A DNA stretch of 57,299 nt from Promethearchaeota archaeon. Its GTDB lineage: Archaea > Asgardarchaeota > Lokiarchaeia > Sigyniarchaeales > SOKP01. The notes below the pieces were generated by a model that saw only the letters and a program-made list of their open reading frames with translations, was not told the DNA's origin and ran no database searches. This document shows positions 6,902 through 51,234 of the stretch, in pieces. The position numbers were made by a program, and so were the translations under genes. The first letter of the stretch is position 1; each line of letters opens with the position of its first letter. Location: NCBI GenBank assembly GCA_048941015.1, contig JBHLNZ010000014.1, positions 1 to 57,299 on the forward strand. The letters run 5' to 3'.

Positions 6902-7114
6902 TTATTCCCTTGAATATTTTTCAATAATGTAATTCTGAAGGGACCATACATACTTTTCAAGATTTAGAATGAGTAATTTCTGTTGGATTTCTCTTAAATA
7001 CGGTACATTGAGTTTTTTAAATGAAGCGTTAAGAAGATCTATTAAATTAAATATTTCAACAATTATTTTCCAATCTTCTGCCCATTCTACATCTTGAACT
7101 TCTAATTGTTCCAT
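6902..7114 (-). CDS. Small hypothetical helical protein (70 aa)
   Basis: ATG-initiated ORF filling an intergenic gap, with amphipathic-helix composition. Confidence 0.65.
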   Translation of the reverse strand: MEQLEVQDVEWAEDWKIIVEIFNLIDLLNASFKKLNVPYLREIQQKLLILNLEKYVWSLQNYIIEKYSRE

Positions 7115-7251
7115 TTTTTATAATACTTTTTTATTAACCTATATTGACTTTATGAATCGTATAGTAATTAGTATTAAAAAATGTTTAGATATAATTGGTT
7201 TAATGATTTTAAATTAAAATAAAAAAAGAAAGTTAAGTCGTAAATAAAAAT

Positions 7252-7803: not shown

Positions 7804-7882
7804 TTCCTCTCATTAACTTTGATTATTTTAATTTAGATTATATTTCATAAAAAATATAATTTATGGAGTCCAAATTTAATAT

Positions 7883-14343: not shown

Positions 14344-14422
14344 TAAATCCTGTAATGATTCAAATAAAAAATCCTTATGGAAAGTTATTTGATGAATGCT
14401 CTGCGCGAGTTCGGATTTAATT

Positions 14423-15634
14423 TTAAATAAATAAATCTAAAATATTAAAATTATCATCGATAATCTCTTCAAACATTCTGAATTGAATTTTTTTTTTATG
14501 GTTTGAGATTTTTTTACCAACATTTTGAATTTTTTTATTATTAGGAAATTTTGAATTTATTACAATTACATAATTCCTAAATCTTTCCCAATTAGGGGTG
14601 CTATTTAAATAATTTTGAATAGTATTTTCGTCTAGCTTTACTTTAATTTCATTATCATAAAACTTTTCATCAAATCTCTCTTCATCGATAAGTAAATAAT
14701 CAATAACTATCTCTTGACCCTCTAAATTTTCCAGAATTATTATTCCCTTCTGCTTTTGTTTTTCAAAACTAATTTTAAAACCATAATTTTGTGATTTTTT
14801 ATATATTGTATACAATAAGTACTGATAATCTTTAAAATCTCCAATTTGAGAGGTAGATATCTTGTTTTCGATTATCGGTTTAAAATCTTCATTTAATTCA
14901 TAACCAATTCCTTTTCTAAATAGAGATTTTGCAACCTTTAAACACGTCCCACTTCCTACAAACGGATCTAATACGCTATCTCCTATTAATGAAAACATTC
15001 TTATAATTCGATATGGTAATTCATCAGGGAACATAGCAATATGTTCTTTTTGTTGTACACCTGGAAAGCTCCAATGACCAACAAACCATTTTTTCCATTC
15101 ACTAAGAGAAATTTTTGAAAACTCTTTCCTTCTCAAATCAACTTTTTTTGTTTTTCCTTGATGCTTTTTAAAAATTAAAATATGTTCATAATCATACGTA
15201 ATTAAACCATTTCGTGGATAATATATTGAACCCATTAAAGTACACCCACCAGTAGTATTAGTTGTACTCACTTTTTGCCAAATAATATCTCCAAGAAAAT
15301 CAAATCCAATTTCGATGCAATCATTAATTATTTTACTTGCAATCGATAATATCCTGTATCTTCCAAATTCTGTTGTTCTTAGGTATTGATCTCCAACATT
15401 TATAACCATACGGCATTGAGGTTCAAGCACTCGAAAGCATTCCTCCCAAACCTTCTTTAATCTTTTAAAATAATCCTCGAATGAATCAGAAAATCCGATT
15501 TGATCAGTAGGACCATAATCTTTTATTTTTCCATAAGGTGGAGAGGTTAAAATTAATTGAATTGAATTTTCTTGAATTTCTTCCATGTTTTCAGATGATT
15601 TATAATATACTTCTGGGTCATAAATCTCAAACAA
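14423..15634 (-). CDS. Orphan beta-class amino (N4-C/N6-A) DNA methyltransferase with C-terminal extension
   Basis: Motif IV TSPPY precedes motif I DPFVGSGT; HIAMFP; GYEL; about 140 extra C-terminal aa. Confidence 0.88.
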   Translation of the reverse strand: MFEIYDPEVYYKSSENMEEIQENSIQLILTSPPYGKIKDYGPTDQIGFSDSFEDYFKRLKKVWEECFRVLEPQCRMVINVGDQYLRTTEFGRYRILSIASKIINDCIEIGFDFLGDIIWQKVSTTNTTGGCTLMGSIYYPRNGLITYDYEHILIFKKHQGKTKKVDLRRKEFSKISLSEWKKWFVGHWSFPGVQQKEHIAMFPDELPYRIIRMFSLIGDSVLDPFVGSGTCLKVAKSLFRKGIGYELNEDFKPIIENKISTSQIGDFKDYQYLLYTIYKKSQNYGFKISFEKQKQKGIIILENLEGQEIVIDYLLIDEERFDEKFYDNEIKVKLDENTIQNYLNSTPNWERFRNYVIVINSKFPNNKKIQNVGKKISNHKKKIQFRMFEEIIDDNFNILDLFI

Positions 15635-35969: not shown

Positions 35970-36769
35970 CGGTGCAATCTCTTTCTTAATTTTTTTTATA
36001 GAATTTTCAATTACAATTGATTAAGTTATTATTTATTTACTTAAAGAAATATTTTACTAATTGTTTTCTGATACTACACTCAAGATTCTATTTAAAACTT
36101 ATCTTTATATTAATACTTTTAACTATTAATAGTATTAAAAATAGTAAAGATCCTAAGTAAGTAGCTACTCGCTCAAGAGATTAAAAAGAAGATTAAAAGC
36201 GGAGCATATGGTAATTTATACCTTCTTTTTCAATCGGTTTTTTGAAAGAATTAAATGGTTAATCCTAATATAAATTTGGGTTTTGATTAACTTAGAAACT
36301 TTTTTATTCGATTATTATCGAAATAAATGTTTTTAATATTTGTATGTCTATCTATTAACTATAGTTTCGAGATTTTCATCTATTTATTATATAAAATTGA
36401 CATTATAATTTTAAATAAATATGAAAGATTTTTAAGTAAATTATATATTTTTACCAAAAATTTGAATTAAAAAATTAAAATTCAAAATTTAATTGATATG
36501 TATAAATGATATTGAGATAGTTTTAATCCTTTCAAAGATCTTATTTGGAACATCAAACCGCGTATTCAAATTAGGAAATTATAGGCCTTATAATGGTGAA
36601 ATATAATATCCCTTGTATTATAGTTGTTTAAAAAACACTCGATCTCATATTTAATGACTCAATATGAAAGCTTAATTGGTTTCTTCAAAAATGAAATATA
36701 AAAAAAAGTTATATTATAATTTTTCATATTCTTAATTGTAGGAAAAAAATTTTGACAGGTTACTAAGTC

Positions 36770-37495
36770 GTGGAAGAATTAAAGGATATACCAAAAAGCA
36801 AATTACCTAAGCATATTGGTCTAATCCTTGATGGAAATCGTCGTTGGGCAGTAAAAAATCTCCTTAATGTTAATGTTGGACACTTGATAGGATATGAAAA
36901 TTTAAAAAAAAGATTATTTGATTTCTTTGATGCTGGAATTCATTATTTAAGTATTTATGCATTATCTCTTGAAAATGTAAGAAGAAGAAGTGAAGATGAA
37001 ATAGTCTATATTTTTAAAATTATTTTAGATGCTGTTGATACTGTAATAAAAGAATCTACGGTCAAAGAAGAGAAAGTTAAATTTAACGTAATTGGCAGAA
37101 TACATTTACTCCCTCAGAAAGTGCAAGATAAAATTAATGAATTGATTGAATTCACAAAAGAATACGATCAAAATTTTATCAATTTGTGTATAATGTATGA
37201 TGGGCAAGATGAAATCGTAGATGCTGTCAGAAATATTGTAAAGGATGGTATTAAAGTTGATGAGATTAATCGTGAATTAATTAAGAGTTATTTATATACA
37301 CGATATTTTCCTGAGGTAGATTATATAATTAGAACGGGGATGGAAGATGGGGCAAGGATTTCAGGATTTCTATTATGGGATTCTTCATATGCAGAATTTA
37401 AATTTAGGAAGGACTTATGGCCAGATTATAATAAAGAAATGATAATTGAAGACTTACTCGATTATGTTGAAAGGAATAGAAGGAAAGGAAAATAG
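36770..37495 (+). CDS. uppS: cis-Prenyltransferase (polyprenyl diphosphate synthase)
   Basis: HIGLILDGNRRWA, SLEN, IRTG..RISGFLLW, YAE, LWPD, C-terminal RRKG. Confidence 0.95.
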   Translation: MEELKDIPKSKLPKHIGLILDGNRRWAVKNLLNVNVGHLIGYENLKKRLFDFFDAGIHYLSIYALSLENVRRRSEDEIVYIFKIILDAVDTVIKESTVKEEKVKFNVIGRIHLLPQKVQDKINELIEFTKEYDQNFINLCIMYDGQDEIVDAVRNIVKDGIKVDEINRELIKSYLYTRYFPEVDYIIRTGMEDGARISGFLLWDSSYAEFKFRKDLWPDYNKEMIIEDLLDYVERNRRKGK

Positions 37496-37646
37496 CTTCT
37501 TTTTTAAAGTAAAAGTTTAAAATTAATAATTTTTATAATGAAGTTATTAAGGTATTATCCCGGTTTTTTAGAAAGATTTTAAACCGAAATAATTATGTGA
37601 AATGCTTAATATTATAGATTAAAAAAAATAAACTTCTTTCGGGAAA

Positions 37647-39473
37647 ATGTCTGTCACACCTAATGGTAATTCCATATCATTGAAAGTAATTCAATTTCCT
37701 CAACATCTTTTAATCCCTAGTGCTGAAAATATAGTCTCATTTCAAACAACTAGTCTTTCTAATAATGAAGAGAACTTTAGATTTGCTTTTAAAGGAGAAG
37801 ATTTGAATATTGACATTAAACAAGAAGAATTCAAAAAGGAAATTAAATTTGGTCCTAATGAAACGAAAGAAATAACCTTAAGATTAACACCTACGTCAGA
37901 TGGTTTTGGAAAATTAATAATTGACATATATTGGTTAAAGATTGTAGAATACACTGTTAAGATCCAAAAAGTTAGAACAACTGTTCCTAAAAGCAAGATT
38001 AAAAAGATATTAGGAAAAAAAAAGTTCTTGAAATATGAAAAAAAGGATGTTTTTGATCATAATGAATATTTAGTATCCTTGAAAAAGAGTGATATTAAAG
38101 CTTTGGAAAATGAATTGAAATCAATAAAAGAAAATTTAGAAAAATTTCAAGCTACTGAAATAAACAATAAAATTAAGACGATTGCTAAAGCATATTTGTC
38201 CAATGATGATCTTTATAAAGCTTTAGAAACCGCATTACAAATTTCAAATCAAGCAGAACAATTAGATTTCTATTATAATTTATTAAGAGCATATTCAACA
38301 ATAAACTTAGAAAAAACGATTCAAATTATAAATGGATTAACAGACCTACAACGAAAAAACGAAATAATAACGAAAATCGCATTAGATTATGCAGATATTG
38401 ATCCCGCTCAAATTAACAGTATTATTTCGATAATTCAAGATCCATCATCGAATGATCAAGTTCTAGTAGACTTAATTAGCAAATTTCTTACAATAAATAC
38501 AGACACCGCATTAAGATTTTCTAACCTCGTTCAAGATGAAGTTATAAAAGTAAAAATTTTATTCAATATTATTAAAAAACTTCAAGAAACAAATAATAAA
38601 GAACAAATCTTACAAATAATTCACCAAATTAACCAAATTATATTAAATTCTCAAAAATTACATTCACCGAATCAAAATAATGAAGTATATGATTTCTTGA
38701 AAGATTCAGTTTGTGTCCTTGCTGAAATGGATTGTCCTGAAGCAGCTGATTCTATTATTAAAAGAATTGCAAACAATGAGTTAAGAGAAAATATTGCTAA
38801 GGATTTATTCAATTTTATATATGAAATGGTAGATGAGATTAGAACGAAAATTGAACCTACTGTGGTTTTTTCACAATATTATGTATTAAATATATACGCT
38901 TCAAAAATCACAAATGAATTAAGGAATTTCTGTTTGATGGGTGGAAATGCAAGCAGTAATCTTTTAATGAAAGATTATAATTTCAATAATTTATTTCTAT
39001 CTCTATTCAGTTTTGATTTTAGTATTTTTCCATTCATAGATCGTGTCTATTCTGATTTAAGATATAACTCAAAAAAGGGAATTGCATATTATATCTTTCC
39101 TACTAAAAAAAATCATGATGAAGAAGAACTTACCATACTTAAAAATACCTTAAGACAATTTTGCTTGTCTCATAATATATCCAAACCAATTAACATCTTT
39201 AATATGGATTTCATACCATATCTGGGCAAACCAACCGTTATACTATCATCTGAGGTAGATGATCCTAATCCATTAAAATTAAAAATAGAAAAGAAAATTG
39301 GTAATTCTGTGAATGTTATAATAGATGATTCAACCTTTAAAGGTGGAGAGTCAACTAATAATTTAAGGGAGTTATTTAGTCCATATAATTTTAAAATTTT
39401 TAATTTAGTATTATCATATGAGTTTATAAATGATTATAATTTATTAAAAGAATTTTTTAGTTCAATTGTTTAA
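37647..39473 (+). CDS. Hypothetical protein: beta-sandwich-like N-terminus, alpha-solenoid (TPR/HEAT-like) middle, alpha/beta C-terminus
   Basis: GPNETKEITLRLTP Ig-like strand pattern; helical repeats such as IAKAYLSNDDLYKALETALQI. Confidence 0.7.
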   Translation: MSVTPNGNSISLKVIQFPQHLLIPSAENIVSFQTTSLSNNEENFRFAFKGEDLNIDIKQEEFKKEIKFGPNETKEITLRLTPTSDGFGKLIIDIYWLKIVEYTVKIQKVRTTVPKSKIKKILGKKKFLKYEKKDVFDHNEYLVSLKKSDIKALENELKSIKENLEKFQATEINNKIKTIAKAYLSNDDLYKALETALQISNQAEQLDFYYNLLRAYSTINLEKTIQIINGLTDLQRKNEIITKIALDYADIDPAQINSIISIIQDPSSNDQVLVDLISKFLTINTDTALRFSNLVQDEVIKVKILFNIIKKLQETNNKEQILQIIHQINQIILNSQKLHSPNQNNEVYDFLKDSVCVLAEMDCPEAADSIIKRIANNELRENIAKDLFNFIYEMVDEIRTKIEPTVVFSQYYVLNIYASKITNELRNFCLMGGNASSNLLMKDYNFNNLFLSLFSFDFSIFPFIDRVYSDLRYNSKKGIAYYIFPTKKNHDEEELTILKNTLRQFCLSHNISKPINIFNMDFIPYLGKPTVILSSEVDDPNPLKLKIEKKIGNSVNVIIDDSTFKGGESTNNLRELFSPYNFKIFNLVLSYEFINDYNLLKEFFSSIV

Positions 39474-39495
39474 TTAAATATCAGTGAAGCATCTA

Positions 39496-41175
39496 ATGGG
39501 AAAAGATAAAAAGAAGAAGAAAAAGAGTAAAAGTAAAGGAGATTCTGATACATTTTCTGCTTTTATGGGTTCTGGAAAAGGAAAATCGAAAGCTAAAGGT
39601 GCATCAGCAGCAACTTGGGAAATATCATTAGGTAATTCAATCGATCGATCAAAAGATCAGCTATTTCTGGGCACTGATTATCGCGAAGTTTATATTCCTG
39701 AAAGATCTTGGGGAGAAATATTAATTGATGTGGAACATTGGACGCCGTTGCCCTACACTCATGGTATCGAAATGGAATTAATAATCGCTGATGACCAAGG
39801 AAATTATCCCCCCGGCGATGAGATGGTTTTCCGAATGAAAGAGATAGTTAAAGATGCCATTAAAATCATGGACCAAATATTATATGAAGGCAGAGATGAT
39901 TTTTATCCGGTTCCAGATTATATCCGTTCTAAAGTTACTGCACGTCCTTACGGGCGAGAAGATTTAGAGAAAGGTTATGCAATGGATATAAGATATAGGT
40001 TACCAAATAATGCTGAAGTAGATATCGATACGTTTGCGAGGGATGGGAATGTCACAGCGGTGACTTATATCTTAGAACTCGTAACTCCGCCCTGCGAATA
40101 TGTTGAAGAGTTAGCATTTTGGGCTAGTACACTATTTTTATTAGCCAAAACGACTTTACCCACAGATTTGCACATTATTGCATCCGCAATCAACCCAGCA
40201 GCAAAAGAATACATGAGAGGATTATCTCAAGCAGACCATTCACACATAGGCTCTTTTGGATCAGAATTGGAAAAGGTACAGGCATATTGTATGATTAGAA
40301 ATTTTATCCCTCACATTATCGCACTTACATGTAATTCACCAATAATTAATAATAAACCCACTGACGTTGTCAAGATTGTCAATGGGAGGATTACTGCCCC
40401 CAATTGTGTACGTTCTTTAAGATTGAAAAGCAATACTACAATGCTTAGTAATAATGACCCTAATCATTATATTCCTTATATAACTGATTCAGAACAAAAT
40501 ACTATCAATTACTTTCTCCAAGTAGTCCAGAAAGCAAGCCTGGAGGACGGCCGATTCCAGGATGTTTTTCCTTTTACTGATTGGGGAACAATTGAGGTAC
40601 GAATTAGTGATGCTCAGATATCAATTTGTAGACGTATTGGTATAGTACTTTTATTACAAGCCATGTGTTATAAATCAAGTAAATTATTAAAAAAAGGTAA
40701 ATGGGTTCCTGATGCAGGTTCAGAAACAATAGCAACAAATCGTAAAGGTGCTATAGAAAGAGGTTTGATTTCACTATTTCGTCCTGCTCCTAATTTAACA
40801 AGAGAACATCTTGCACAATATGATCCTGATTTTGCTGAGCAATATTTAGGTCCCCAAAATCAGCCAGTACGATATATGATGCAGGCTGTTCAGAGAATGT
40901 TCTTTTATTTAAAAAATGAATTGAAAGAATTAGGATTTCTTTATTCACCATTTTTAAAGCCTATACTTCAGTCTGTTTTTGGAAGCGTAAGTTATGCTGA
41001 ACCACCAATAACGGAAGCTGAATATCAATTATCCTTATATGATTATAAATTAAAAAATGGAGAGGATCCAAGTATTTTATGGGATTTAATTTATTTTACG
41101 ATTCAATATTGTCAAGATCCTATAAATAATCCTTTGACAGGAGTCTTAACTCTCCCAAAAGAAATGCGCGATTAA
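39496..41175 (+). CDS. Glutamate-cysteine ligase-2 (GCS2/YbdK)-fold carboxylate-amine ligase with lysine-rich N-terminus
   Basis: HGIEMELII, LELVTPP, HSHIG, IALTCNSP, GTIEVRISDAQ; ATG at 39496 preferred over the track's GTG at 39484; starts MGKDKKKKKKSKSKG. Confidence 0.8.
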   Translation: MGKDKKKKKKSKSKGDSDTFSAFMGSGKGKSKAKGASAATWEISLGNSIDRSKDQLFLGTDYREVYIPERSWGEILIDVEHWTPLPYTHGIEMELIIADDQGNYPPGDEMVFRMKEIVKDAIKIMDQILYEGRDDFYPVPDYIRSKVTARPYGREDLEKGYAMDIRYRLPNNAEVDIDTFARDGNVTAVTYILELVTPPCEYVEELAFWASTLFLLAKTTLPTDLHIIASAINPAAKEYMRGLSQADHSHIGSFGSELEKVQAYCMIRNFIPHIIALTCNSPIINNKPTDVVKIVNGRITAPNCVRSLRLKSNTTMLSNNDPNHYIPYITDSEQNTINYFLQVVQKASLEDGRFQDVFPFTDWGTIEVRISDAQISICRRIGIVLLLQAMCYKSSKLLKKGKWVPDAGSETIATNRKGAIERGLISLFRPAPNLTREHLAQYDPDFAEQYLGPQNQPVRYMMQAVQRMFFYLKNELKELGFLYSPFLKPILQSVFGSVSYAEPPITEAEYQLSLYDYKLKNGEDPSILWDLIYFTIQYCQDPINNPLTGVLTLPKEMRD

Positions 41176-41228
41176 AAATAAGAAAAAATAAAAGTTAAAA
41201 TTTTAATAAAAAAAAATGATAAAAAATA

Positions 41229-42767
41229 ATGTTAACAGCCACTATTGAACAAGATGGAAAGACAAGAGTTGAACATATATTTGTAATTGATGCCCATTCT
41301 CATCTCGGTCAAGATGTAGATGGAGCTACAATGATGAATCCACTCGCACCAGGTACTGGAACATTTGATTTTTGGGGAAATGTTCAAGGAAGAATTAGAA
41401 CAGATTGGCTAAATACAGGTGAACAATCATTTAGAACCAATATTGATGGTAAGCATTGTAGAATTTCATGGTCATTTACTCCCTATCCATTCACGGAGAA
41501 ATTATATGACGCATTAGAAAAAATTGGCAAAAAGCATTCAGATTTGAAAGAAAAGTCGAAATTTTATTCGTTTATTGATCAAGGCGTGGTTTTTCCTTTC
41601 CAAGACGTTTTTAGAGATAAACACCCCGAAGCTCTTTATAGAGCTAGCAATATTAATGTTTCCCGATTTACTACACGGTTTCCTTTCTGCATGAAATTAA
41701 TAGGATACGCTCGAGTGGATCCTATGGAAGGACAGAAAGCTGTTAATGAAGTAAGTTACGCTCGGGAGGAATTAGGTTTAAGAGGATTAAAGTTGCATCC
41801 TCGATCCGAGCGATGGATAGATAATATAAATACTAGTAAAGCAGTTGATGTCCTTATAGAAGCTGCAAGCCATTCAATGCCCGTGATATTTGATACAAGA
41901 GGTAGAGGATCTATTTTGGATATTTCAGAGCTAGTAAATTCGACAAGAGGAATAATAACACAACAATATCCAGATTTATTGCCTCATTTTAAGGTAATTA
42001 TTGCTCATTTTGCTCAAGGTAATATTGGTGATCACGATGTTTACAATGCTATTATACAACCTAATACATATGGCGATCTTTCCATGTTACACGGAGAAGG
42101 AGCTGGAAATTTCTTTAAAGACTTCAGACAATGGTTTAAATCAAATAACAAATTTCGAGTAGATAATCGAGATTGGTCCGAATATCTTTTATATGCTTCA
42201 GATTATCCCTATTTTGGAGAAGTTCATGCTCAAAAATTAATAAAGTATATAATTAATAAGCAATTTTTCGATACAGGAGGAAATATTCAGGATGTTAGGA
42301 ATATTATGGGTTTAAACCAACTAAAATTATTACCAGAGTATAATTTACCTCAAACTAACAAAAATGGAAAAAAATTACCAAGCACAATTGTTTCAAATCC
42401 TTCTAATAAAAACGCAAGTGGATTCGAAACAGTAATAACCGTATTAGCCAAATTAATAACTAATAATAGAATAGATGTTAAGAAATTCTGTTTACAATTT
42501 AAAGGAACCTGGGATAAATTTAATGAGGATGTTTTGCTTACTGCTTTAAAAACAACTACAAGAGAAGAAATACAACTAGTTTTAGCTGACTTAATAAAGG
42601 GTCAAGTTTCACTCTTAGCACCCTTAAGTAAAGAAACAAGATGGAATAAATTCGGATATAAATATTTCAATCCAAAAGATCGGGCTTTTTTTACTTCACT
42701 ATTTAAACAATCATATTTAGCCACGGATGAAAATCAGGTTATGGGTTGTTTAAACCAAATTTTTTAA
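41229..42767 (+). CDS. Amidohydrolase-2-family metallohydrolase with C-terminal extension
   Basis: IDAHSHLG, ARVDP, GLKLHP, IIAHF, YASDYP. Confidence 0.85.
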   Translation: MLTATIEQDGKTRVEHIFVIDAHSHLGQDVDGATMMNPLAPGTGTFDFWGNVQGRIRTDWLNTGEQSFRTNIDGKHCRISWSFTPYPFTEKLYDALEKIGKKHSDLKEKSKFYSFIDQGVVFPFQDVFRDKHPEALYRASNINVSRFTTRFPFCMKLIGYARVDPMEGQKAVNEVSYAREELGLRGLKLHPRSERWIDNINTSKAVDVLIEAASHSMPVIFDTRGRGSILDISELVNSTRGIITQQYPDLLPHFKVIIAHFAQGNIGDHDVYNAIIQPNTYGDLSMLHGEGAGNFFKDFRQWFKSNNKFRVDNRDWSEYLLYASDYPYFGEVHAQKLIKYIINKQFFDTGGNIQDVRNIMGLNQLKLLPEYNLPQTNKNGKKLPSTIVSNPSNKNASGFETVITVLAKLITNNRIDVKKFCLQFKGTWDKFNEDVLLTALKTTTREEIQLVLADLIKGQVSLLAPLSKETRWNKFGYKYFNPKDRAFFTSLFKQSYLATDENQVMGCLNQIF

Positions 42768-42924
42768 TTTTAATTTTCTTTCATCTTATTTTTAAAAACT
42801 TAAATCTTAACAATGCATATAATTTGATGTATAAATAAAAAAGATAGATAGTATTATTATAAATTAAGTAATTTAATATTAGAACTACCGTTTCTTATTT
42901 ACTTTTCTTTAATGTGGATAATAA

Positions 42925-44139
42925 TTGAAGGGAATCATAATATTAGGATTTAAAAAAGGTTTTGAACCTTATATAGATACACAGTTTCCAAGTAATATAT
43001 GTGAATTTTTGAATGTGGCTCCCAAAGATTTACATCGTTTATCAGATGAACATATGAAAAGAAAAATGGAACCAAATTTTTTAGATATGCAAATTAAAGA
43101 AAATGTAAATGTTGCTAGTTTTTATTCCGGTTTTACATTTCGCCATTATGTTGGAAAGCCTGATTTTGCAATTACCGTATTTCTTTCTGATGATGATAAG
43201 ACATCTGAGAATTTCGAAGGCATGATAAGACGAATAGCTCATGAATTATTACCTAAAAGAGAAGCATTAAATTTTGATGATATTTTGGGACAGTATTATG
43301 AAATGATGAAAAATGAAGAATTAAGTTCATATTGGGAAGAAATTATTGAGGGCGAAACTACTATTCTGGAAGGTAAGGAAAATGAATCCGTAGAAGAGGC
43401 TAAAATAGAAGAAAAAGAACAAGAATTAGAGAGTGAAAAAGATACTGAATTAACAGATTCTACCCTTGAAATAGATATAGAAACTCTAAAAGCTGAAAAT
43501 GTTGAACTTAAGCACATTTTAGATGAAAAAGCAACAAAAATTAGAGAACTAACTCAAAAATATACAGAATTATCTTCAGAAAAAAAGAATTATATGGAGG
43601 AAATTGAAACACTTAAAAGCGAAATTAGTGAGCAATATATTAAATTAGAGAAATGGAGTCAACAAATGGCTGATCTAAATGAAAATAATGCGAAATTACT
43701 GGAAGAAGTAAAGACATTAACAGAGGATTTATCCAAAAAAGAAAAAGAGTCATTAGAAAAAGAAAATGAAATTGCTAGTTTGAATAAAAATTTAAAGGGC
43801 ACTGAAGATATAGAAAAAGAAGCTAAAAGTTTATTCAAAAAAACGCAGGAGCTGAGAGAAATTAACTCAGCATTGATTATTAAGATGGAAAAAATAGATA
43901 AGCAAAATAAAGAACTTTTAGATGAAGTAGATAAAAATAAAGACGTAATTGATATCCATATGAACACTATAACAAATCTTAAACTTGAACTAAAAGAAGT
44001 AAAAAATAAGTTTGATATTAAAGACGAAGAAAAGGAAAGCATTAAAAATGAGATTTTTGATTTAAAGAAAGAAATAAAAATACTTAGACGAGAGAGAGAT
44101 CATTACAAAAAAATCGTGAAAGAGAATAATCTTCTTTAA
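42925..44139 (+). CDS. Longin/uDENN-like N-terminal domain + long coiled coil
   Basis: N-terminal about 120 aa align with the N-terminus of 50107..51234; residues about 180-404 are heptad-rich in E/K. Confidence 0.75.
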   Translation: MKGIIILGFKKGFEPYIDTQFPSNICEFLNVAPKDLHRLSDEHMKRKMEPNFLDMQIKENVNVASFYSGFTFRHYVGKPDFAITVFLSDDDKTSENFEGMIRRIAHELLPKREALNFDDILGQYYEMMKNEELSSYWEEIIEGETTILEGKENESVEEAKIEEKEQELESEKDTELTDSTLEIDIETLKAENVELKHILDEKATKIRELTQKYTELSSEKKNYMEEIETLKSEISEQYIKLEKWSQQMADLNENNAKLLEEVKTLTEDLSKKEKESLEKENEIASLNKNLKGTEDIEKEAKSLFKKTQELREINSALIIKMEKIDKQNKELLDEVDKNKDVIDIHMNTITNLKLELKEVKNKFDIKDEEKESIKNEIFDLKKEIKILRRERDHYKKIVKENNLL

Positions 44140-44299
44140 AAGAAAGATTTTCCTTTTTTTCATACGGTTTTTATTATGTTAATTAGGAAAAACATATTTT
44201 TATATAGACATACTTTTTTAATAATAATAACAGTTTTAAACTTAAAATTCTAATATATTATATAAAATATCAAATTAAGAATGGTGTATTGTTATTAGT

Positions 44300-44749
44300 T
44301 TGGATACGAAGAGTTTTGACAATATCCTTTCAAAAATAATAAAATCCGAGAGCGGAATCAAGAAAGTCATTTTAGTTGATAGAACTGGATTGACTATCGC
44401 AAGTGTCTCAAAATTTTCATACTTTCCCGCTGATGTAGATGGGATTGGTGCGATAGCGAGTGCTGTATTCTGTGCATCGGAGGAACAAGGTAAAAATCTT
44501 GAATTAGGGGACTTAGAAATAGTTACAAGTGAATTTTCAGGTGGAAAGATTTTTGCTTCAAGTTGTGGACCTAAAGGTGTACTTACGCTTATATCTGACC
44601 CTGAAATCAATATTGGGTTAATTAGATTAATTCTTAAACGTTCAGGTGATGAATTAAAAGAAATTCTTGATGAATTCTTATCTGATATTCCTGATACATT
44701 AGATTCAGGTCTAGATTTAAGTGATTTGGATGAATTAACTCCAGATTAA
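44300..44749 (+). CDS. Roadblock/LC7 (MglB/LAMTOR-like) protein with acidic tail
   Basis: VILVDRTGLTIAS, IGAIASAVF, LELGDL, INIGLIRL; tail DIPDTLDSGLDLSDLDELTPD. Confidence 0.9.
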   Translation: MDTKSFDNILSKIIKSESGIKKVILVDRTGLTIASVSKFSYFPADVDGIGAIASAVFCASEEQGKNLELGDLEIVTSEFSGGKIFASSCGPKGVLTLISDPEINIGLIRLILKRSGDELKEILDEFLSDIPDTLDSGLDLSDLDELTPD

Positions 44750-44849
44750 AAAATTATTATCAAACAATATCCAATTACTATTTTCTGCTCTCTTCTAGAG
44801 CAATTAATATTTCTCCTTCTAAATAATTTCTTAAAGGTTTGAACCTGAT

Positions 44850-45014
44850 ATGAGACCTGATATTGAAAAGAGACTTCATAGGGTTGAAATAAGGCTAGAT
44901 AAAAGTAAAATAAAATGTACTCTTTCAAATCAATGCAATCAAGCAGAAAATTGTTATAGATGCAATGAATTTTATACAAAATGTAACATTTACAAGCAAA
45001 ATTATTTTAAGTAA
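44850..45014 (+). CDS. 54-aa cysteine-rich microprotein (not in ORF track)
   Basis: Manual translation MRPDIEKRLHRVEIRLDKSKIKCTLSNQCNQAENCYRCNEFYTKCNIYKQNYFK*; C-x5-C-x5-C-x2-C-x6-C; same strand as both neighbours. Confidence 0.65.
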   Translation: MRPDIEKRLHRVEIRLDKSKIKCTLSNQCNQAENCYRCNEFYTKCNIYKQNYFK

Positions 45015-45065
45015 GCAATTAAAGATAGTATAAAATTAGAAAATCATTTATTTTGGTATATTAAA

Positions 45066-45866
45066 ATGGATCTAGGAATAGAAGGGAAAGTAAGTTTGGT
45101 TTTAGCATCAAGTAAAGGGTTAGGATTAGCTTGCGCAAAGGAATTTTATCGTGAAGGAGCTAACGTAATAATATGTAGTCGTTCTCAAGAAAATCTAGAA
45201 AAAGCAAAAAATCAGATTAGAAGTTTATATCCTGGAAAAAAAAATGAAATATTTTCTCTTGTTGCTGATTTACAGTATGCTGATCAAATAGAAATATTAA
45301 TAGAAAAAGTCATAAAAGAATTTGGGACAATTGATATATTGGTTCATAATGCTGGTGGACCTCCATCTGCTCCAATTAATAAAATTACAAAAAATGATTG
45401 GGAAAACTCAATCAATCTTAATCTATTGTCTTTTATTAGAATTACCGAGTTGGTGATACCTTATATGCAGAAACAACAATCTGGAAGAATAATTGCAATA
45501 ACCTCTGTTTCTGTTAAACAACCTTTAAATAATTTAGTATTATCAAATACTACAAGATTGGGAGTTGTTGGTTTTGCTAAAACGCTTGCAAATGAATATG
45601 CTCAAGACAATATATTAGTGAATGTTGTTTGTCCTGGACCTAATCTCACTGATCGAATGAAAGAAATAATTAAAACACAAGTAGAAACTATGGGGAAATC
45701 TTATGAGGAGATTGAGAAAATGTGGATAGATCCAATACCTTTGGGACGATTTGGCAAACCTGAAGAATTAGCAAATTTAGTTGTTTTTCTAGCATCAGAG
45801 AAAGCAAGTTATATAACTGGAACGACAATTCAAGTTGACGGAGGATTTATAAAAGCTCCCTTCTAA
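45066..45866 (+). CDS. Short-chain dehydrogenase/reductase, atypical SNxxR active site
   Basis: LASSKGLG, HNAGGP, LSNTTR, PLGRFGKPEE, YITG..IQVDGG. Confidence 0.92.
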   Translation: MDLGIEGKVSLVLASSKGLGLACAKEFYREGANVIICSRSQENLEKAKNQIRSLYPGKKNEIFSLVADLQYADQIEILIEKVIKEFGTIDILVHNAGGPPSAPINKITKNDWENSINLNLLSFIRITELVIPYMQKQQSGRIIAITSVSVKQPLNNLVLSNTTRLGVVGFAKTLANEYAQDNILVNVVCPGPNLTDRMKEIIKTQVETMGKSYEEIEKMWIDPIPLGRFGKPEELANLVVFLASEKASYITGTTIQVDGGFIKAPF

Positions 45867-46066
45867 AAAGACTTTTTATTATCAAGTATTATTCTGATAT
45901 TACTTCTAAAAAAATATTTATGAAATAAGTAAATAAATTTTTATACACCAGACTAACATTATTTATCTAAATATTTGGATAATAATTGCAATTCTTCTTT
46001 TAAAATAATTGCTAATTTATTGATTAAACAAAATTTAGATTAAAAATTGTAGTATGGTGATTATGA

Positions 46067-49000
46067 TTGCCAGGAAAAATATATCGAGTTTTAAGATTAA
46101 AGAATTATAAGAAAAAAAGATTTTTAGTTCTTTCGAGTATTTTAATCAGTTTCATTTTAATGGCTGCTTTAAAAAATCTTGATATTTATGCTAATTTAGG
46201 ATTAGAAGATCAAAAACTTGTCAATTATGAAGATATTCAGATTGAAAATTTAAAAACTCAAGATTTGGCTTTTGATAATACTTTTACCGGTAAAGGGAGT
46301 GCTTGGAATATAACTCACTATGCTAATCGAACAAAAACTAATTTGGAGGTAAGTTTTAATAACAACTCTTATGATGCTTCTCAACAAGTAGAATTAGAGA
46401 ATGGATGGATGGGATATCAATTAAATTCTACAGTAAATAATTTATATATTACAAGGAATTTAGTTAATGGGACATTTCATGCTGGTACATATACAGGAGG
46501 CTCTCCTCCACCTTTATATGATGATAGTTCGTATGTTGCTAATTGGACATTTGGTGAATATGATGTCCCTGCTCATACAAATACAATGTCGGGAAATTAT
46601 TTAGACGAGACTCATAGTGATTCAGATGGTGCAGATTGCTTACAATTAAGAATCAATAGAGCTGGAGGTGGTTACTTTGATCAAGGTGATATTTGTTGGT
46701 GGACTACTACATTTTCAATTCCTCAAGGAGCAGTAGAAGAAGGATGGATAAACTTTGCTATAAATCCATCATATTATGATGATTATGCTAATCATTTTGA
46801 AATCCGTTTTATAATAAACAATACAATTGTGTGGAATGCGGCTCTTTTATCATTAAAAAATGAAATTGATAATGCACTTGGTTATGTTGGATGGTATGAT
46901 ATAGAAAAGAATATTAATAATATTCAACAATTAATTCCAGACGGAACAACAGAAACGAATGTGACTATTGAATTAGAAAGAATTGGACAAACACAAGGTA
47001 CTTATACCGTTGATTATGGTGTATTAGTTGATAACGTAACTCTAATTGTAAAAACCAAAGCAAATCCAACTGAAATTGAATTAAAATTAAACAATAAACA
47101 AATCTATGACGATCCTGTAAATGATGGTGAGGGTTTTCTTGGAATTGAAGGTACTTGGAATGGGACTGAACAATCCTCAGTAATCGCTAATTTTAGTAGT
47201 AATATTAATTGGCCTTTAGTTTTTGATGATGATGGAAATTTAAGAAGTTATAAGATTGATCTTAAAACAAATTTAGCTTTATATATAAATAAGTCTACCC
47301 CTGAAAGTTATTATATAGCTGATCCTGATCTAAATTATCAAGGCTCAGCTTTTATAGTATCTAATAATAGCAATGTAAATTGGACAACATATGCACATAT
47401 GGAGATTCCAGCAGGATATGAAGAAACGAATATGACAATTGAATATCCTCTCGATGTTAATTTAACTGGAATAATTTTTTCTCAAAGTGATTCTCTTTCT
47501 CAAGCCTCTGTTAAAGAATATGGAAATTCAAAAGTTGTAAATATTCCAGTAAGTTCCATAACAGGTAATACAAATGGATTCTGGAAGTTAACTGCAGAAT
47601 CACCGAATTACTGTAAAGAAATGGAAATATATAATAATGTTACAGGCGATTGGGAACTGAATAATGAATTTCTTAGCGGAGAATATATTAACATTACTGC
47701 GAAAATTAATAATTCTCAATTGATTTCTGGCTACATTCAACAAACTCTAGCTCAACTTCAAATAAAATTTCCAAATGGTACAATCTGGTCGACGCAAAAT
47801 CAAATAAAGGCTGTAGATAACATAGGTATGGTGTATTTTGACCCGATTAAAATACCAAATGATGTTCCAAATTATGAAGCAGGAGAATATGAAGCGATTA
47901 TTACTTGGAATAATTCATATTTATCCTTTGAATTAAATGAAACAGGTATTATTTATAAAAATTTTATAGTAATCCATGATTCTTTACTTTACCCTGATCA
48001 AGGTACATTTTTCATTGAGAATGTAATTGACGATAGAATAATTAATATAAAGGTTTCATTTAGAGATCTAATAGATGGAACTGCCATTGAAAATGCACAG
48101 GTATACACTGATTTTACAGGAATAGACGAAACTCTAAGTGAAACCAGTCCAGGATTTTATTTATATGAGTTTAATGCAACCAATGCTAACGCAGGAAACA
48201 ATACTGTCACAATTTATGCAAATTCAACCTACTATTCAAATAAAATCATAAATATTACAGTTGAAGTAATTAAAGAGACGATTCTGAATGTTGAAACTGA
48301 TTTTTTTACTGTTCCTTGGAATCAAAATTTTACAGTAAAATTTAATTATACTGAAAAGAATAATCCTGAAAATGGTATTGATACAGCAGATATAACTATT
48401 GATGAGTGGCTCGGTGATTATCACTTAACCCAACCCAGTATTGGACAATATGAATTAGAATGTAATACATCTGCTTATGCTGCACTTACACTTCAATCAT
48501 TCATAATTTCAATAAATCAGTATAAATATGAGCCCCAATCTGTTTTAATTAGGGTTTCAATATCGGAATTAGAGACTTCTTTAATATTATATGTGGACAG
48601 TGATGAAAAAAGCGATGGTGATAAAATTCAAGTTCAAGCTAATGAAGTCATAAATGTTACAGTATTATACCAAGATAATATAACCAAACAACATCTTAGT
48701 GGAGCGGAAGTATCTCTATCAGGAAATGGAAATTTTACCGAAATAAATAACCAGTACAACTACACCATAAATACCAATGATTTAAATCAAACAATTACAC
48801 CATTAACCATATTTGCTGATTTGGATAATTACGAATCTAAAAGTATTGAATTCTTAGTTGAAATAATTGATAGAGAAACAGATTTACTATTATTCTTAGA
48901 TACTGTTCCAAAAAATGATAGTGCTAAAATTCAAGTAGAAGTTAATGAATTTATAAATGTTACAGTAATTTATCGAGATAATGAATCTGGGCAATTTCTT

Positions 49001-50086
49001 AGTGGAGCTGATGTAGCTTTATTAGAAAGAGGAAATTTCACGGAAATAAATAATCAATATAATTATACCATAGATACTAATGATTTAAATCAAGGAATTA
49101 CAATTTTAACGGTGTATGCAGAGTTAGATAAATATCAGCCTCAGATTTTTTACTTCTACGTTGAAGTAGTTGAAAGAGAATCAGATTTGAAATTATTAAT
49201 CGATGAAGATGATATGACTCTTGATCCGGTTATAACTGATACGATTGACAAAATATTAAACATCACAATCTATTATACTGATAATCAAACTGGAACTCAT
49301 ATTGGGGGTGCATCAGTTCAATTGATCCAATTGGTTGGGGAGGGTGGTACAATAGACTTCAACGAAACTTTAAATCAATATAGTGTGTTTCTGAATACTT
49401 CAGATTTGAAAATTGGGGTGAATCTTTTTTCAATTGTAGCTCATGCTAATAATTACCAAATTAAAACAATAGATTTAAGAATTACTGTTAACAGAATAAA
49501 GATAACACCTAGCATTTTAACAGGAGAATCTTATCTAACTGGATTTAAAGGAGAAACTGTTCGTTTAAAAATTATCTTAAATGATACGAATGTACTTCCT
49601 TCTGGAGAGCTCATTAAAAATGCTAATGTAACCTTTATGTGGTCTTATGGAGGGGGAAGACTTTTGGATCCTGAAAATGACGGTATTTATGAAGCAGATT
49701 TAGATCTAAGTGTGCCAATCGAAACATACATTCTAAGAATATATGTTGAAGATGAATTTAATGAATATGTCTTTGAGTATAATTCAGAGAATGGTTATGA
49801 GATTACTTTGAATGTTAATGCAAGGCCTGGATTGGATCTAACATGGTTAATTATTATATTTTCTGCCGCCATAATAGGACTTATTTCAATTTTTACCGCA
49901 TATCAGAAGCACTATAAGTATCCACCTATGGTAAGGAAAATTAGAAAAATAAGAAAAAAAATTAGAAAAAGTAAAAAAACTAAACCAATAATGATTACTG
50001 AACGAGAAGATTTAATTAACAATCTTTTGGAAGATAAAAAGGAATCAAGTAAATTATCGAAAAAAGAATTCTTAGAGTTAAAGTAA
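46067..50086 (+). CDS. Large membrane-anchored cell-surface glycoprotein with Ig-like repeats
   Basis: N-terminal basic + hydrophobic signal segment; many N-x-S/T sequons; about 100-aa repeats; C-terminal TM (WLIIIFSAAIIGLISIF) then basic PPMVRKIRKIRKKIRK. Confidence 0.85.
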   Translation: MPGKIYRVLRLKNYKKKRFLVLSSILISFILMAALKNLDIYANLGLEDQKLVNYEDIQIENLKTQDLAFDNTFTGKGSAWNITHYANRTKTNLEVSFNNNSYDASQQVELENGWMGYQLNSTVNNLYITRNLVNGTFHAGTYTGGSPPPLYDDSSYVANWTFGEYDVPAHTNTMSGNYLDETHSDSDGADCLQLRINRAGGGYFDQGDICWWTTTFSIPQGAVEEGWINFAINPSYYDDYANHFEIRFIINNTIVWNAALLSLKNEIDNALGYVGWYDIEKNINNIQQLIPDGTTETNVTIELERIGQTQGTYTVDYGVLVDNVTLIVKTKANPTEIELKLNNKQIYDDPVNDGEGFLGIEGTWNGTEQSSVIANFSSNINWPLVFDDDGNLRSYKIDLKTNLALYINKSTPESYYIADPDLNYQGSAFIVSNNSNVNWTTYAHMEIPAGYEETNMTIEYPLDVNLTGIIFSQSDSLSQASVKEYGNSKVVNIPVSSITGNTNGFWKLTAESPNYCKEMEIYNNVTGDWELNNEFLSGEYINITAKINNSQLISGYIQQTLAQLQIKFPNGTIWSTQNQIKAVDNIGMVYFDPIKIPNDVPNYEAGEYEAIITWNNSYLSFELNETGIIYKNFIVIHDSLLYPDQGTFFIENVIDDRIINIKVSFRDLIDGTAIENAQVYTDFTGIDETLSETSPGFYLYEFNATNANAGNNTVTIYANSTYYSNKIINITVEVIKETILNVETDFFTVPWNQNFTVKFNYTEKNNPENGIDTADITIDEWLGDYHLTQPSIGQYELECNTSAYAALTLQSFIISINQYKYEPQSVLIRVSISELETSLILYVDSDEKSDGDKIQVQANEVINVTVLYQDNITKQHLSGAEVSLSGNGNFTEINNQYNYTINTNDLNQTITPLTIFADLDNYESKSIEFLVEIIDRETDLLLFLDTVPKNDSAKIQVEVNEFINVTVIYRDNESGQFLSGADVALLERGNFTEINNQYNYTIDTNDLNQGITILTVYAELDKYQPQIFYFYVEVVERESDLKLLIDEDDMTLDPVITDTIDKILNITIYYTDNQTGTHIGGASVQLIQLVGEGGTIDFNETLNQYSVFLNTSDLKIGVNLFSIVAHANNYQIKTIDLRITVNRIKITPSILTGESYLTGFKGETVRLKIILNDTNVLPSGELIKNANVTFMWSYGGGRLLDPENDGIYEADLDLSVPIETYILRIYVEDEFNEYVFEYNSENGYEITLNVNARPGLDLTWLIIIFSAAIIGLISIFTAYQKHYKYPPMVRKIRKIRKKIRKSKKTKPIMITEREDLINNLLEDKKESSKLSKKEFLELK
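48572..49177 (+). repeat. Tandem 303-nt (101-aa) Ig-like domain duplication inside the surface protein
   Basis: Units start at 48572 and 48875 (a more diverged one at 49178); shared GNFTEINNQYNYTI[N/D]TNDLNQ and INVTV.Y.DN. Confidence 0.85.
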
Positions 50087-50106: not shown

Positions 50107-51234
50107 ATGGCTAAAGGATTTGTAATTACAAAATGGACTGAGGATCAAGGGTTGATAGTATACCATATTTATCCCGAAAATCTAACAGTAGATCTAGATG
50201 ATATGATGAGAATCTTTTATGCACACATTACCGGTGCTGGAGAAGCAGGTAATGTTTTGGTGAGATTAGAAAAAGCTAAGTCAAATGTATCTAGTTATTT
50301 CACTGGTATGGAATCTGAAACACCTTTGATGATAAATTTAATGTTAGAATTAGGTGAAGATCCTGAGATGTTTGGCGAAGCAGTCATCTCTGAAATAAAT
50401 GAAAACATTTTGAAATATTTGCAGAAGATGACAGAAAATGTTGGTGAGAGCTATGAGACAACAAAAGAATTAATTGGTTATATGAAAGATGCACTACTAC
50501 TATTGGAACGTTTAAAGAATCTTTCTAAAGAACAACGAATGGCTCAAATTTTCAGTAGTGCACGATTAAGATCGATTTTAGAGATGTTACAGGAAAGAGC
50601 CTATTCAAGAGGAGAACTTCGAAATCTTATAGAAGAGAAGACAGGACGATTTATATCAAATCTTGAAATTGCATTAGATCCATTTATTAAAACTGATATT
50701 ATCAAACAAGATTGGATTGAAGGAGATACAGATACAACGTTATTTTTACTTTCAGATTTTACCATTATGCGAGCTCCTGCTGAGAAGCTAGTAGAGAGTG
50801 CTCGAAAGAATTTACCTACTCCAGAATTAGCGACAAGATATTTAGAAGAAGTTTCGAAGTTTTTTAGCACCTATGATCCTTACTTTGAAGACAATTTGAA
50901 AGTAGCTCGTAATATGATAAATCCAGATAAATATGATTTTATAACACTGTTTAGAGAGAAAGCATATCCTATAAACAAAATACCTAAAGGCTCAGGGGAA
51001 AGTTTTGAACAAATCAGAGTATTTTTACAAACACTCGAAGATGATAAAATTATTACTTCAATTAAAGATAGTACTGGAATGGAATGGATATTTTTGCTTA
51101 CTGACCCAATAGCACATACATTTTATCCCGAATATCTAATTGAAAATATAAGGAAGGACATTTCTGAGAAAAGACTTAAAAAAGATATTGCAGTTAAGCA
51201 CTTAGAATTATTGGAGCAGGTATATAAAAAATAA
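50107..51234 (+). CDS. Longin/uDENN-like domain + two winged-helix-like domains (NPRL2-like architecture)
   Basis: KGFVITKWTEDQGLIVYHIYPE N-terminus; repeated wHTH-like segments ILEMLQERAYSRGEL.. and FITLFREKAYPINKI.. Confidence 0.65.
   Translation: MAKGFVITKWTEDQGLIVYHIYPENLTVDLDDMMRIFYAHITGAGEAGNVLVRLEKAKSNVSSYFTGMESETPLMINLMLELGEDPEMFGEAVISEINENILKYLQKMTENVGESYETTKELIGYMKDALLLLERLKNLSKEQRMAQIFSSARLRSILEMLQERAYSRGELRNLIEEKTGRFISNLEIALDPFIKTDIIKQDWIEGDTDTTLFLLSDFTIMRAPAEKLVESARKNLPTPELATRYLEEVSKFFSTYDPYFEDNLKVARNMINPDKYDFITLFREKAYPINKIPKGSGESFEQIRVFLQTLEDDKIITSIKDSTGMEWIFLLTDPIAHTFYPEYLIENIRKDISEKRLKKDIAVKHLELLEQVYKK

Follow-up and report, generated by a model that had tools for sequence, protein, structure and literature searches.

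The stretch analysed here, referred to as the window, comprises 57,299 nucleotides from a Promethearchaeota archaeon (contig JBHLNZ010000014.1), and the element in question is a group of three adjacent genes at 37647-42767, which encode an adaptor protein, a divergent ATP-dependent ligase and a metal-dependent hydrolase. These three genes are a conserved functional unit, which Asgard archaea keep or lose together. We give about even chances to the fuller interpretation that 37647-42767 is an operon that encodes an enzyme module in its Lokiarchaeial form, a module shared by much of the Asgard phylum, with the protein upstream of the ligase as its adaptor. The source genome is designated G000, Asgard families are labelled f1, f2 and so on, and L, G and P numbers stand for loci, genomes and proteins. 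The genes of the core are as follows:

37647..39473, plus strand: adaptor protein, 608 aa, described from its AlphaFold2 (AF2) model; no Pfam or NCBIfam match
39496..41175, plus strand: divergent YbdK/GCS2-type ATP-dependent carboxylate-amine ligase, 559 aa, assigned by a profile search against the PDB and by its motifs
41229..42767, plus strand: Amidohydro_2-type metal-dependent TIM-barrel hydrolase, 512 aa, assigned by its AF2 model and structure matches

A preliminary description of this DNA had placed six open reading frames (ORFs) on the plus strand between 37647 and 45014, and the ORF listing contains all of them at those positions. It had also noted that a solenoid protein, a ligase and an amidohydrolase are tightly spaced on one strand, which agrees with gaps of 22 nt between the adaptor and ligase genes (10 nt if the ligase is read from an upstream GTG) and 53 nt between the ligase and hydrolase genes. 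The distances further downstream are longer, with 157 nt between the hydrolase gene and a coiled-coil gene and 160 nt between the latter and a Roadblock gene. Judging from this spacing, the first three genes have the appearance of a single operon, whereas the later genes have room for promoters of their own.

Conservation of the three-gene core across Asgard archaea

Synteny was compared in 33 loci of the Lokiarchaeia-class families f1-f3 and f5-f7 (the window, L021-28, L036-40, L046-49 and L052-66). The adaptor, ligase and hydrolase genes have the same order and strand in 32 of the 33 loci, the sole exception being L037 (G024), in which the hydrolase gene is on a different contig. Conservation of the neighbourhood across Asgard archaea, which the preliminary description had named as a check of its proposal, thus applies to these three genes, while the coiled-coil, Roadblock and Cys-rich microprotein genes fall outside the core. 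Outside these families the arrangement is looser. In f4 (three loci), the adaptor, though split or shortened, keeps its place immediately before the ligase, and the hydrolase is encoded elsewhere in the genome. The ligases of f20/f21 (three loci) are 1180-1191 aa long and preceded by an ORF of 247-263 aa, and all three loci have a hydrolase homologue (E 1e-80 to 1e-88) on the opposite strand, at a distance of about 1.6 kb. In f30/f31 (three loci), a ligase of about 1140 aa is preceded by a related short ORF, and the hydrolase is again encoded elsewhere. The ORFs of 220-263 aa, which immediately precede the long-form ligases of f20, f21, f30 and f31, match the C-terminal domain of the adaptor (A3 profile positions 460-597) with an E-value of 4.7e-8 in a search of only 12 sequences, and may therefore be read as its putative counterparts.

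The phyletic distribution was evaluated in 400 Asgard genomes, using a ligase profile at E <= 1e-10 and a hydrolase profile at E <= 1e-20; the counts are given without a statistic, and related genomes are not independent of each other. The ligase is present in 253 and the hydrolase in 250 of the 400 genomes, with the same presence and absence at the family level, and one shared set of 17 families (103 genomes) lacks both. The tallies for ligase and hydrolase run in parallel within families as well: 115/113 of 134 genomes in f1, 11/11 of 14 in f2, 17/16 of 22 in f16, 12/11 of 12 in f18, 5/5 of 5 in f20 and 6/6 of 6 in f21. Two matches for each enzyme are found in most f20 genomes and in all f21 genomes. 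Among the 135 f1 genomes including G000, 15 lack both enzymes, some of them rated 92-100% complete, while six have the ligase only and four the hydrolase only; in at least six of these ten discordant cases the surviving gene is at a contig end (G004, G006, G014, G255, G022, G243). The joint presence, loss and duplication of ligase and hydrolase is clear from these counts. That the three genes are unrelated and merely neighbours by chance has nothing in its favour except that the window proteins, taken singly, score weakly in Pfam, and we regard it as highly improbable in the face of 32 collinear loci out of 33, matching phyletic profiles and matching copy numbers.

In four f1 loci (L038, L057, L058, L061), insertions of 1.2-4.9 kb were observed between ligase and hydrolase. 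In L038 (10544-11745), a 48-codon copy of the 5' end of the hydrolase gene is followed by a 235-aa coiled-coil ORF and then by the full hydrolase gene, and this partial copy suggests a mobile insertion with duplication.

The ligase

The ORF of the ligase opens at a GTG at 39484 (563 aa), while its conserved start is the ATG at 39496 (559 aa, MGKDKKKKKK...); the orthologues in L036 and L040 begin at the equivalent ATG, which supports the length and start previously given for this protein. The Pfam family GCS2 (PF04107) matches the window ligase with an E-value of 3.7e-4 and 20.4 bits against a cut-off of 21, a genome-wide search returned 23.2 bits 'with neighbours', and the cut-off is passed by the relatives in L041 (33.4 bits) and P0134 (41.3 bits). 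TIGR02050, the YbdK model, matches with an E-value of 7.7e-10 and 38.6 bits against a cut-off of 176.4, a score that puts the window ligase outside the YbdK equivalog as far as sequence can tell. With a profile of 17 orthologues, the only structures matched in the PDB were those of YbdK (1r8g, 3.3e-7; 1tt4, 5.3e-7), and the alignment to them spans all three motif blocks, GxExE, DHxH and ExRxxD. The residues G94-x-E96-x-E98, D251-H252-x-H254 and E371-x-R373-x-x-D376-A-Q378 are invariant in 17 of 17 orthologues, and therefore the ligase is most likely active. The conserved motif blocks together with the retrieval of the YbdK structures support the GCS2 fold that had been proposed, as well as the statement that the protein is longer than a typical YbdK, since its core has about 480 aa as opposed to about 370 and carries a Lys-rich tail in addition. 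In f1-f3, this tail makes up the first 85 or so residues, which are variable, disordered and Lys-rich and are followed by a short motif containing TF. The f5-f7 orthologues, with a length of 469-506 aa, are without it, and in f4 a helical N-terminus takes its place. An assignment of the f4 N-terminus to the MIT domain (Pfam MIT, E 1.8e-3) was considered and is unsupported: a profile of three sequences retrieved no MIT domain from the PDB, only repeat artefacts with designer PPR proteins.

The ligase family is small, with 219 matches at E <= 1e-3 and 93 at E <= 1e-30 among 1.84 billion representative proteins. Members with a named source come from Promethearchaeota, Helarchaeota and Heimdallarchaeota bins and from one Thermoplasmatota bin, and in the database they are called hypothetical or 'glutamate-cysteine ligase family protein'. 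In G000, the window ligase is the only GCS2 match. Fusions were surveyed in 165 proteins, consisting of the best 150 of the 219 family matches, cluster members and two proteins from the examined loci. A near-full ligase domain is present in 77 of the 165, and 60 of these 77 bear extensions of more than 150 aa, the longest protein reaching 3804 aa. Pfam recognises little in the extensions apart from VWA, zinc ribbons and HhH in one protein each. Neither ligase-hydrolase nor ligase-adaptor fusions occur among the 165 family proteins.

Several ligase-like proteins stand apart. Paralogous ligases with 34-38% identity form the N-terminus of 1327-aa proteins in L033 and L035 (G027 and G026), whose tails resemble repeated Ig-like sandwiches. 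An ORF of 1132 aa in L032 (8645-12043, G033) combines a helical N-terminal region of about 780 aa with a C-terminal ligase half, in which the ExE block is missing. Its interpretation as an adaptor-ligase fusion was rejected, as hhalign against the adaptor profile gave an E-value of 0.29 and only the C-terminal half of the ligase is represented; a chimeric gene, a pseudogene or an assembly error could account for this ORF. A cluster of 331-aa proteins, 93% viral (Uroviricota) and one third with GCS2, scored 0.93 by language-model features in comparison with 39484-41175, and there may be a distant kinship between the ligase and such GCS2-like proteins of phages.

The hydrolase

The Pfam family Amidohydro_2 (PF04909) matches the window hydrolase with an E-value of 3.7e-3 and 17.5 bits against a cut-off of 26.4, while the f21 homologue scores 63.9 bits. 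A search of the PDB with a hydrolase sequence profile retrieved nothing useful, and the assignment is based on the AF2 model (predicted local distance difference test, pLDDT, 84.1; predicted template modelling score, pTM, 0.88), in which a TIM barrel spans aa 18-371 and is followed by an extra C-terminal alpha/beta domain at aa 385-512. VIA-align superposes the model on 3cjp with Z 21.9 (root-mean-square deviation, rmsd, 2.7; 229 residues aligned) and on 3nur with Z 21.7, the latter also being the best Foldseek match (E 1.1e-7). LigJ and ACMSD follow with Z 20.7 and 20.5, and LigJ, LigY, ACMSD, LigW, LigI and IDCase together cover a range of Z 18-21. Five residues, H23, H25, H190, H260 and D325, are invariant in 12 orthologues and would correspond to the usual metal and catalytic H/H/H/H/D positions, their assignment to barrel strands following from the motif context. 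The earlier identification of an amidohydrolase is therefore upheld by the superposition of the barrel on Amidohydro_2 members and by the invariance of the metal-site residues. Those structural neighbours that have been characterised are not amidases but decarboxylases, hydratases and lactonases, and no known isopeptidase is among the nearest structures. This speaks against a simple role as an isopeptide eraser, which had been suggested for this protein, although the identity to these neighbours is no more than 10-18%.

The adaptor

The AF2 model of the adaptor (pLDDT 86.0) consists of an Ig/PapD-like beta-sandwich at aa 10-109, which is closed by strands at 392-416, an inserted helical TPR-like solenoid at aa 115-391 and a C-terminal peptidase-like alpha/beta domain at 426-608. 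The name 'alpha-solenoid protein' given to it before is appropriate for the helical part and misses the beta-sandwich and the alpha/beta domain. A sequence profile retrieved nothing useful from the PDB. By VIA-align, the sandwich is best matched by the SPD-2 domain of CEP192 (7ptb, Z 10.2), then by MG domains and transglutaminase barrels, and the helical part (144-396) aligns to TPR/PPR proteins, with high rmsd only. For the C-terminal domain, the matches are structures of the N-formylglutamate-amidohydrolase family (2odf, Z 10.6, rmsd 3.3, 165 residues aligned; 2q7s, Z 9.4) and the poly-gamma-glutamate hydrolase YndL (5onj, Z 9.0), as well as pyrrolidone carboxyl peptidase and MpaA, values to be read against a stated VIA-align background of 7-8. 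In 13 C-terminal domains compared, only N438, P485, D560, F564 and G567 are near-invariant and no conserved His or Glu metal ligands were found, and therefore the domain is probably non-catalytic.

The solenoid is an insertion: the f5-f7 orthologues are short (361-413 aa) and match only the two ends of the profile. The adaptor is also a fast-evolving protein, with an identity to the f2 orthologues of 23-27%, compared with 51-59% for the ligase and 42-52% for the hydrolase.

Two other assignments of the adaptor were rejected. Complement C4b and alpha-2-macroglobulins are the top Foldseek matches (E 2.6e-6), which would make it a thioester protein, but the TM score is 0.12 and the rmsd 24-38, the VIA-align match is limited to one MG-like sandwich (4ziu, model residues 4-101), and there is neither a Cys-Gly-Glu-Gln-type site nor an invariant Cys or Gln in the helical region. 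Homology of the sandwich to the tail of the ligase paralogue P0122 was not significant (hhalign probability 5%).

A VWA protein and its link to gelsolin and Roadblock genes

Clustering of the ORFs around the module yielded a family of VWA proteins (Pfam VWA, 1.3e-9 to 4e-5), in which the positions of the metal ion-dependent adhesion site (MIDAS), D502-x-S504-x-S506, T621 and D653, are invariant. The VWA gene lies directly upstream of the adaptor in four of four f5-f7 loci, within a few genes of the module in five of ten f2/f3 loci and right after the hydrolase in three of three f20/f21 loci. In P0153 and P0278, the conserved part of the VWA protein (profile positions 299-697, E 1e-44) forms a fusion with a ligase domain that follows it. 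The gene is found in 249 of the 400 genomes, with the same family-level distribution as the enzymes. The best PDB match of its profile is VWA2 (5a8j, 1.9e-10), and DEPDC5 is not among the matches.

In f2, the VWA gene is flanked by a Roadblock gene (Robl_LC7, 5.5e-9) and a true Asgard gelsolin gene, the gelsolin profile matching the Lokiarchaeota 2DGel structure 7whg with an E-value of 3e-14, and a Roadblock of a type other than that of the window stands by the module with gelsolin and VWA genes in six of ten f2/f3 loci. G000 has the gelsolin-Roadblock-VWA cluster outside the window, on contig C35 (L051; 8043-8906, 9124-9513 and 9628-11820), about 2 kb upstream of an actin gene (13730-14884, Pfam Actin 1.6e-50), which is followed by a gene for a CHAT-domain protein. 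The presence of the VWA cluster beside the module in f2 and the VWA-ligase fusion therefore establish an indirect link of the module to cytoskeleton and GTPase-regulator proteins.

Proposed mechanism and nature of the target

In the chemistry of YbdK and GshA, ATP activates a carboxylate as an acyl phosphate, which is joined to an amine. Accordingly, an acyl phosphate would be expected to form in the ligase of the module on a carboxylate, with a gamma-carboxylate of glutamate type as the most likely one, and to react with an amine to an amide, and the hydrolase would act on the same molecule, either by undoing the amide or by processing the substrate or product. The upstream protein would be the adaptor that brings the target to the ligase. 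Its TPR-like insert, which is specific to Lokiarchaeales, may dock the Lys-rich tail of the ligase, because both occur together in f1-f3 and both are missing in f5-f7, and the MIDAS-containing VWA protein could be a further docking partner that recruits the target.

A protein or other macromolecule is slightly favoured over a metabolite as the target, at a probability that we put just short of even, because most family members are part of large architectures for protein interaction and the module is not accompanied by metabolic genes. The VWA-ligase fusion and the dedicated, fast-evolving adaptor are further points in favour of a macromolecule. A free metabolite is a serious candidate, though we hold it to be distinctly less than evenly probable. 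In the corresponding small-molecule pathway, the product of the ligase would be a free amide, for example a gamma-glutamyl compound, a low-molecular-weight thiol (gamma-Glu-Cys or the like) or a solute, which the hydrolase would provide, recycle or break down, while adaptor and VWA protein would merely regulate or localise the enzymes; we consider this scheme, taken as a whole, possible at that same reduced level. It agrees with YbdK being the only solved relative by sequence, with the window ligase being the only GCS2 match in the genome and with the small aromatic or acid substrates of the structural neighbours of the hydrolase. Asgard matches to GshA InterPro families have in addition been put forward in a review as possible makers of gamma-Glu-Cys (PMC7278568). 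However, the YbdK equivalog cut-off is missed widely (38.6 versus 176 bits), the ligase family is tiny (219 proteins at E <= 1e-3 of 1.84 billion), and 60 of its 77 near-full members are fused to large non-enzymatic architectures, a VWA fusion included. The absence of the ligase from 17 Asgard families and from complete genomes of the window's own genus would be odd for a housekeeping thiol. The clustered loci revealed no metabolic genes conserved beside the module, the genome of G000 yielded zero matches for gamma-glutamyltranspeptidase, and, as noted before, glutathione, ergothioneine and gamma-glutamyl genes are absent from the ORFs of the window that were scanned.

Returning to the macromolecular target, its most far-reaching form is an Asgard-specific, ATP-driven protein modification, in which the ligase would write a gamma-glutamyl-type amide or isopeptide, the hydrolase would erase it, the pseudo-peptidase adaptor would read or present it and the VWA protein would dock to gelsolin and Roadblock. 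We regard this complete scheme as unlikely. The idea of a reversible writer-eraser unit, which goes back to the preliminary description, is retained insofar as ligase and hydrolase are a conserved, co-occurring pair, and loses ground insofar as the relatives of the hydrolase are not isopeptidases and neither a small modifier nor a PafA/Dop enzyme was seen; as a reading of the two enzymes it is plausible but unproven.

A number of observations weigh against the fuller interpretation of the three genes given at the outset. The analysis yielded no substrate, modifier protein or modified residue, and the nearest characterised relatives of both enzymes (YbdK and GshA; ACMSD, LigW, LigJ, LigI and IDCase) all act on small molecules, with no known isopeptidase among the Amidohydro_2 members matched. 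The hydrolase is not adjacent to the ligase in f4, f30 and f31. The VWA protein is not strictly coupled to the enzymes: it is present in G015, G265, G232 and G251, which are near-complete f1 genomes with neither enzyme, and absent from G264, G002, G023, G208, G238 and G240, all of which have both. As regards the adaptor, the solenoid is connected with the Lys-rich tail through no more than one or two evolutionary events, the peptidase-like assignment depends on Z-scores of 9-10.6 with the stated background at 7-8, and the kinship of the short upstream ORFs would have to be judged from a match scored in a tiny database.

Neighbouring genes

Upstream of the core, the plus strand carries a large mevalonate/isoprenoid cluster, which is followed by a cis-prenyltransferase gene (UPPS, 36770-37495). 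Downstream, the hydrolase gene is followed by:

42925..44139, plus strand: coiled-coil protein, 404 aa, of which about 140 aa at the N-terminus form a globular domain; SMC/Rad50-type matches
44300..44749, plus strand: Roadblock/LC7 protein, 149 aa, with a conserved acidic tail; Robl_LC7 E 2.2e-10
44850..45014, plus strand: Cys-rich microprotein, 54 aa; tblastn and phmmer relatives in some f1 genomes

The first of these proteins had been called a longin-coiled coil. The coiled coil is evident from the SMC/Rad50 matches, whereas the longin N-terminus has no Pfam match and an 8-sequence profile of it had its best PDB match at E 0.071, to an unrelated protein. The assignment of the second as a Roadblock protein with an acidic tail is correct (40.5 bits against a cut-off of 23). 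The Cys-rich microprotein likewise exists as a conserved ORF, with relatives in L040 (56% identity over 48 aa, tblastn), L054 (3.2e-17, phmmer) and L058 (6e-17, phmmer). In some f1 genomes it is kept beside the Roadblock gene and a short-chain dehydrogenase/reductase (SDR) gene, which also lies downstream of it in the window, and the loci compared gave no sign that it belongs to the module.

The coiled-coil gene accompanies the module in 11 of 19 f1 loci and four of ten f2/f3 loci, and the window-type Roadblock gene is located close to it in 12 of the 19 f1 loci, four of which have this gene on the opposite strand. The UPPS gene, which has no evident relation to the module, adjoins it in 16 of the 19, and therefore synteny within the family carries little functional weight. 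Outside f1, the window-type Roadblock was not found beside the module, a weak match in L066 (2.1e-6) being a different Roadblock. The coiled-coil and Roadblock proteins of the window, although formerly counted as parts of the system, are neighbours by descent and not core parts. It had been proposed that ligase and hydrolase are a reversible gamma-glutamyl/isopeptide pair that acts on, or signals to, precisely these two proteins, which we now judge improbable. The strict conservation of the acidic tail and the distance of no more than a few kb between Roadblock gene and module, as seen in 12 of 19 f1 loci, speak for such a connection; with 14 Robl_LC7 matches in the 3.59 Mb of the G000 genome, such closeness would be expected in about 3% by a rough estimate, and the different Roadblock with gelsolin and VWA genes in six of ten f2/f3 loci points in the same direction. 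Against this stand the unrelated UPPS gene, which is at least as syntenic, the flipped strand of the Roadblock gene in four loci and its own upstream gap of 160 nt, the failure to find the window-type Roadblock beside the module outside f1, the f5-f7, f20/21 and f30/31 families that keep the enzymes without either neighbour, and the failure of the profile of coiled-coil N-termini to match a longin domain.

Some further observations concern the surroundings of the module. The Roadblock protein is 97-99% identical between genomes in which the ligase is 83-89%, the hydrolase 74-78% and the adaptor 45-48% identical, and the f1 genera share its acidic tail (...DSGLDLSDLDELTPD), which six other Roadblocks inspected in G000 do not have; the high identity and the kept tail therefore point to very strong purifying selection on this protein. 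Two ORFs further downstream in the window (46067-50086, 1339 aa, and 50107-51234, 375 aa) have no Pfam match, and the 1339-aa protein is kept downstream of the SDR gene across the genus. In L043 (G310, f30), a gene for an 805-aa protein of the EAP30/Vps36 family (5962-8379, 3.1e-19) is located upstream of the adaptor-ligase pair, with an Arf-like GTPase and a CdvA/syntaxin-like coiled-coil protein in the vicinity. A link of the module to the endosomal sorting complex required for transport (ESCRT) was dismissed, as the EAP30/Vps36 gene is not kept in L044 or L045 (f31) and L043 is a single case. On contig C29 of G000 (19199-19684), an ORF that ends in a ubiquitin-like stretch, ...LLIPASTAG, was noticed; it is unlinked to the module in this genome.

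Comparison with known systems

The enzyme folds of the module are known, while their combination, the adaptor and the wiring are new. No description of the module was found in the literature on Asgard ligases, YbdK/amidohydrolase, amidoligases/GCS2 and GATOR1, nor is the pairing of these two enzyme folds described there. The text of PMC7278568, apart from its tables, counts Asgard matches to GshA InterPro families without describing the module, and the available part of PMC12290439 does not mention it. Among known archaea, the Asgard group is most closely related to eukaryotes, and lineage-wide gene sets of unassigned role in this group are candidate components of pre-eukaryotic cell biology. 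In the present case, the module includes a dedicated, fast-evolving adaptor, and there are repeated links, or a fusion, to a VWA protein whose gene is accompanied by gelsolin and Roadblock genes. Should proteins be the target, the module would represent a new ATP-dependent writer-eraser chemistry near the root of eukaryotic signalling and would parallel, in a prokaryote and with unrelated enzymes, the glutamylation or ubiquitin-like signalling of eukaryotes; should the product be a metabolite instead, that would be a novel, Asgard-specific compound.

With the YbdK/GCS2 ligases of E. coli (1r8g) and Salmonella (1tt4), the window ligase shares the same three catalytic blocks, and ATP-dependent amide ligation through an acyl phosphate would be expected here as well. 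It differs from them in its longer core, in the Lys-rich tail or the large fused domains, in its dedicated partner genes and in belonging to a small clade, of which all named sources are Asgard save the one Thermoplasmatota bin. PafA and Dop belong to the same ligase superfamily as YbdK/GCS2, as stated in PMC7947786. The logic of actinobacterial pupylation is similar, in that a ligase is paired with a hydrolase acting on the amide; however, Dop and PafA are paralogues, and the hydrolase of the present module is a TIM barrel without relation to its ligase. The ligase profile did not retrieve PafA or Dop from the PDB at E <= 1, where only YbdK was found, which leaves room for a distant kinship. 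No Pup-like modifier was seen, and no ORF of at least 50 aa in 36500-46000 ends in a C-terminal Gln or Glu, small ORFs not having been searched systematically.

The hydrolase has the fold of the Amidohydro_2 members (ACMSD, LigW, IDCase, LigJ, LigI and the uncharacterised 3cjp/3nur/2f6k), with Z about 18-22 and the same HxH/H/H/D positions, and differs from them by an identity of only 10-18%, an insertion at aa 45-110 and the extra C-terminal domain of about 130 aa. The C-terminus of the adaptor superposes on N-formylglutamate amidohydrolase, PghP-YndL and M14-type enzymes (2odf, 2q7s, 5onj, 5hxd) with Z 8.6-10.6 against the stated background of 7-8, and several of these enzymes recognise glutamyl amides, while the adaptor domain is without their conserved His/Glu ligands. 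The layout of a beta-sandwich with a peptidase-like domain presumably recalls cytosolic carboxypeptidases. Compared with the Asgard gelsolin-Roadblock-VWA cluster, finally, the VWA protein that accompanies the module has an intact MIDAS and a true gelsolin (7whg-type) as its mate, the G000 copy of this cluster being located on C35 and not in the window.

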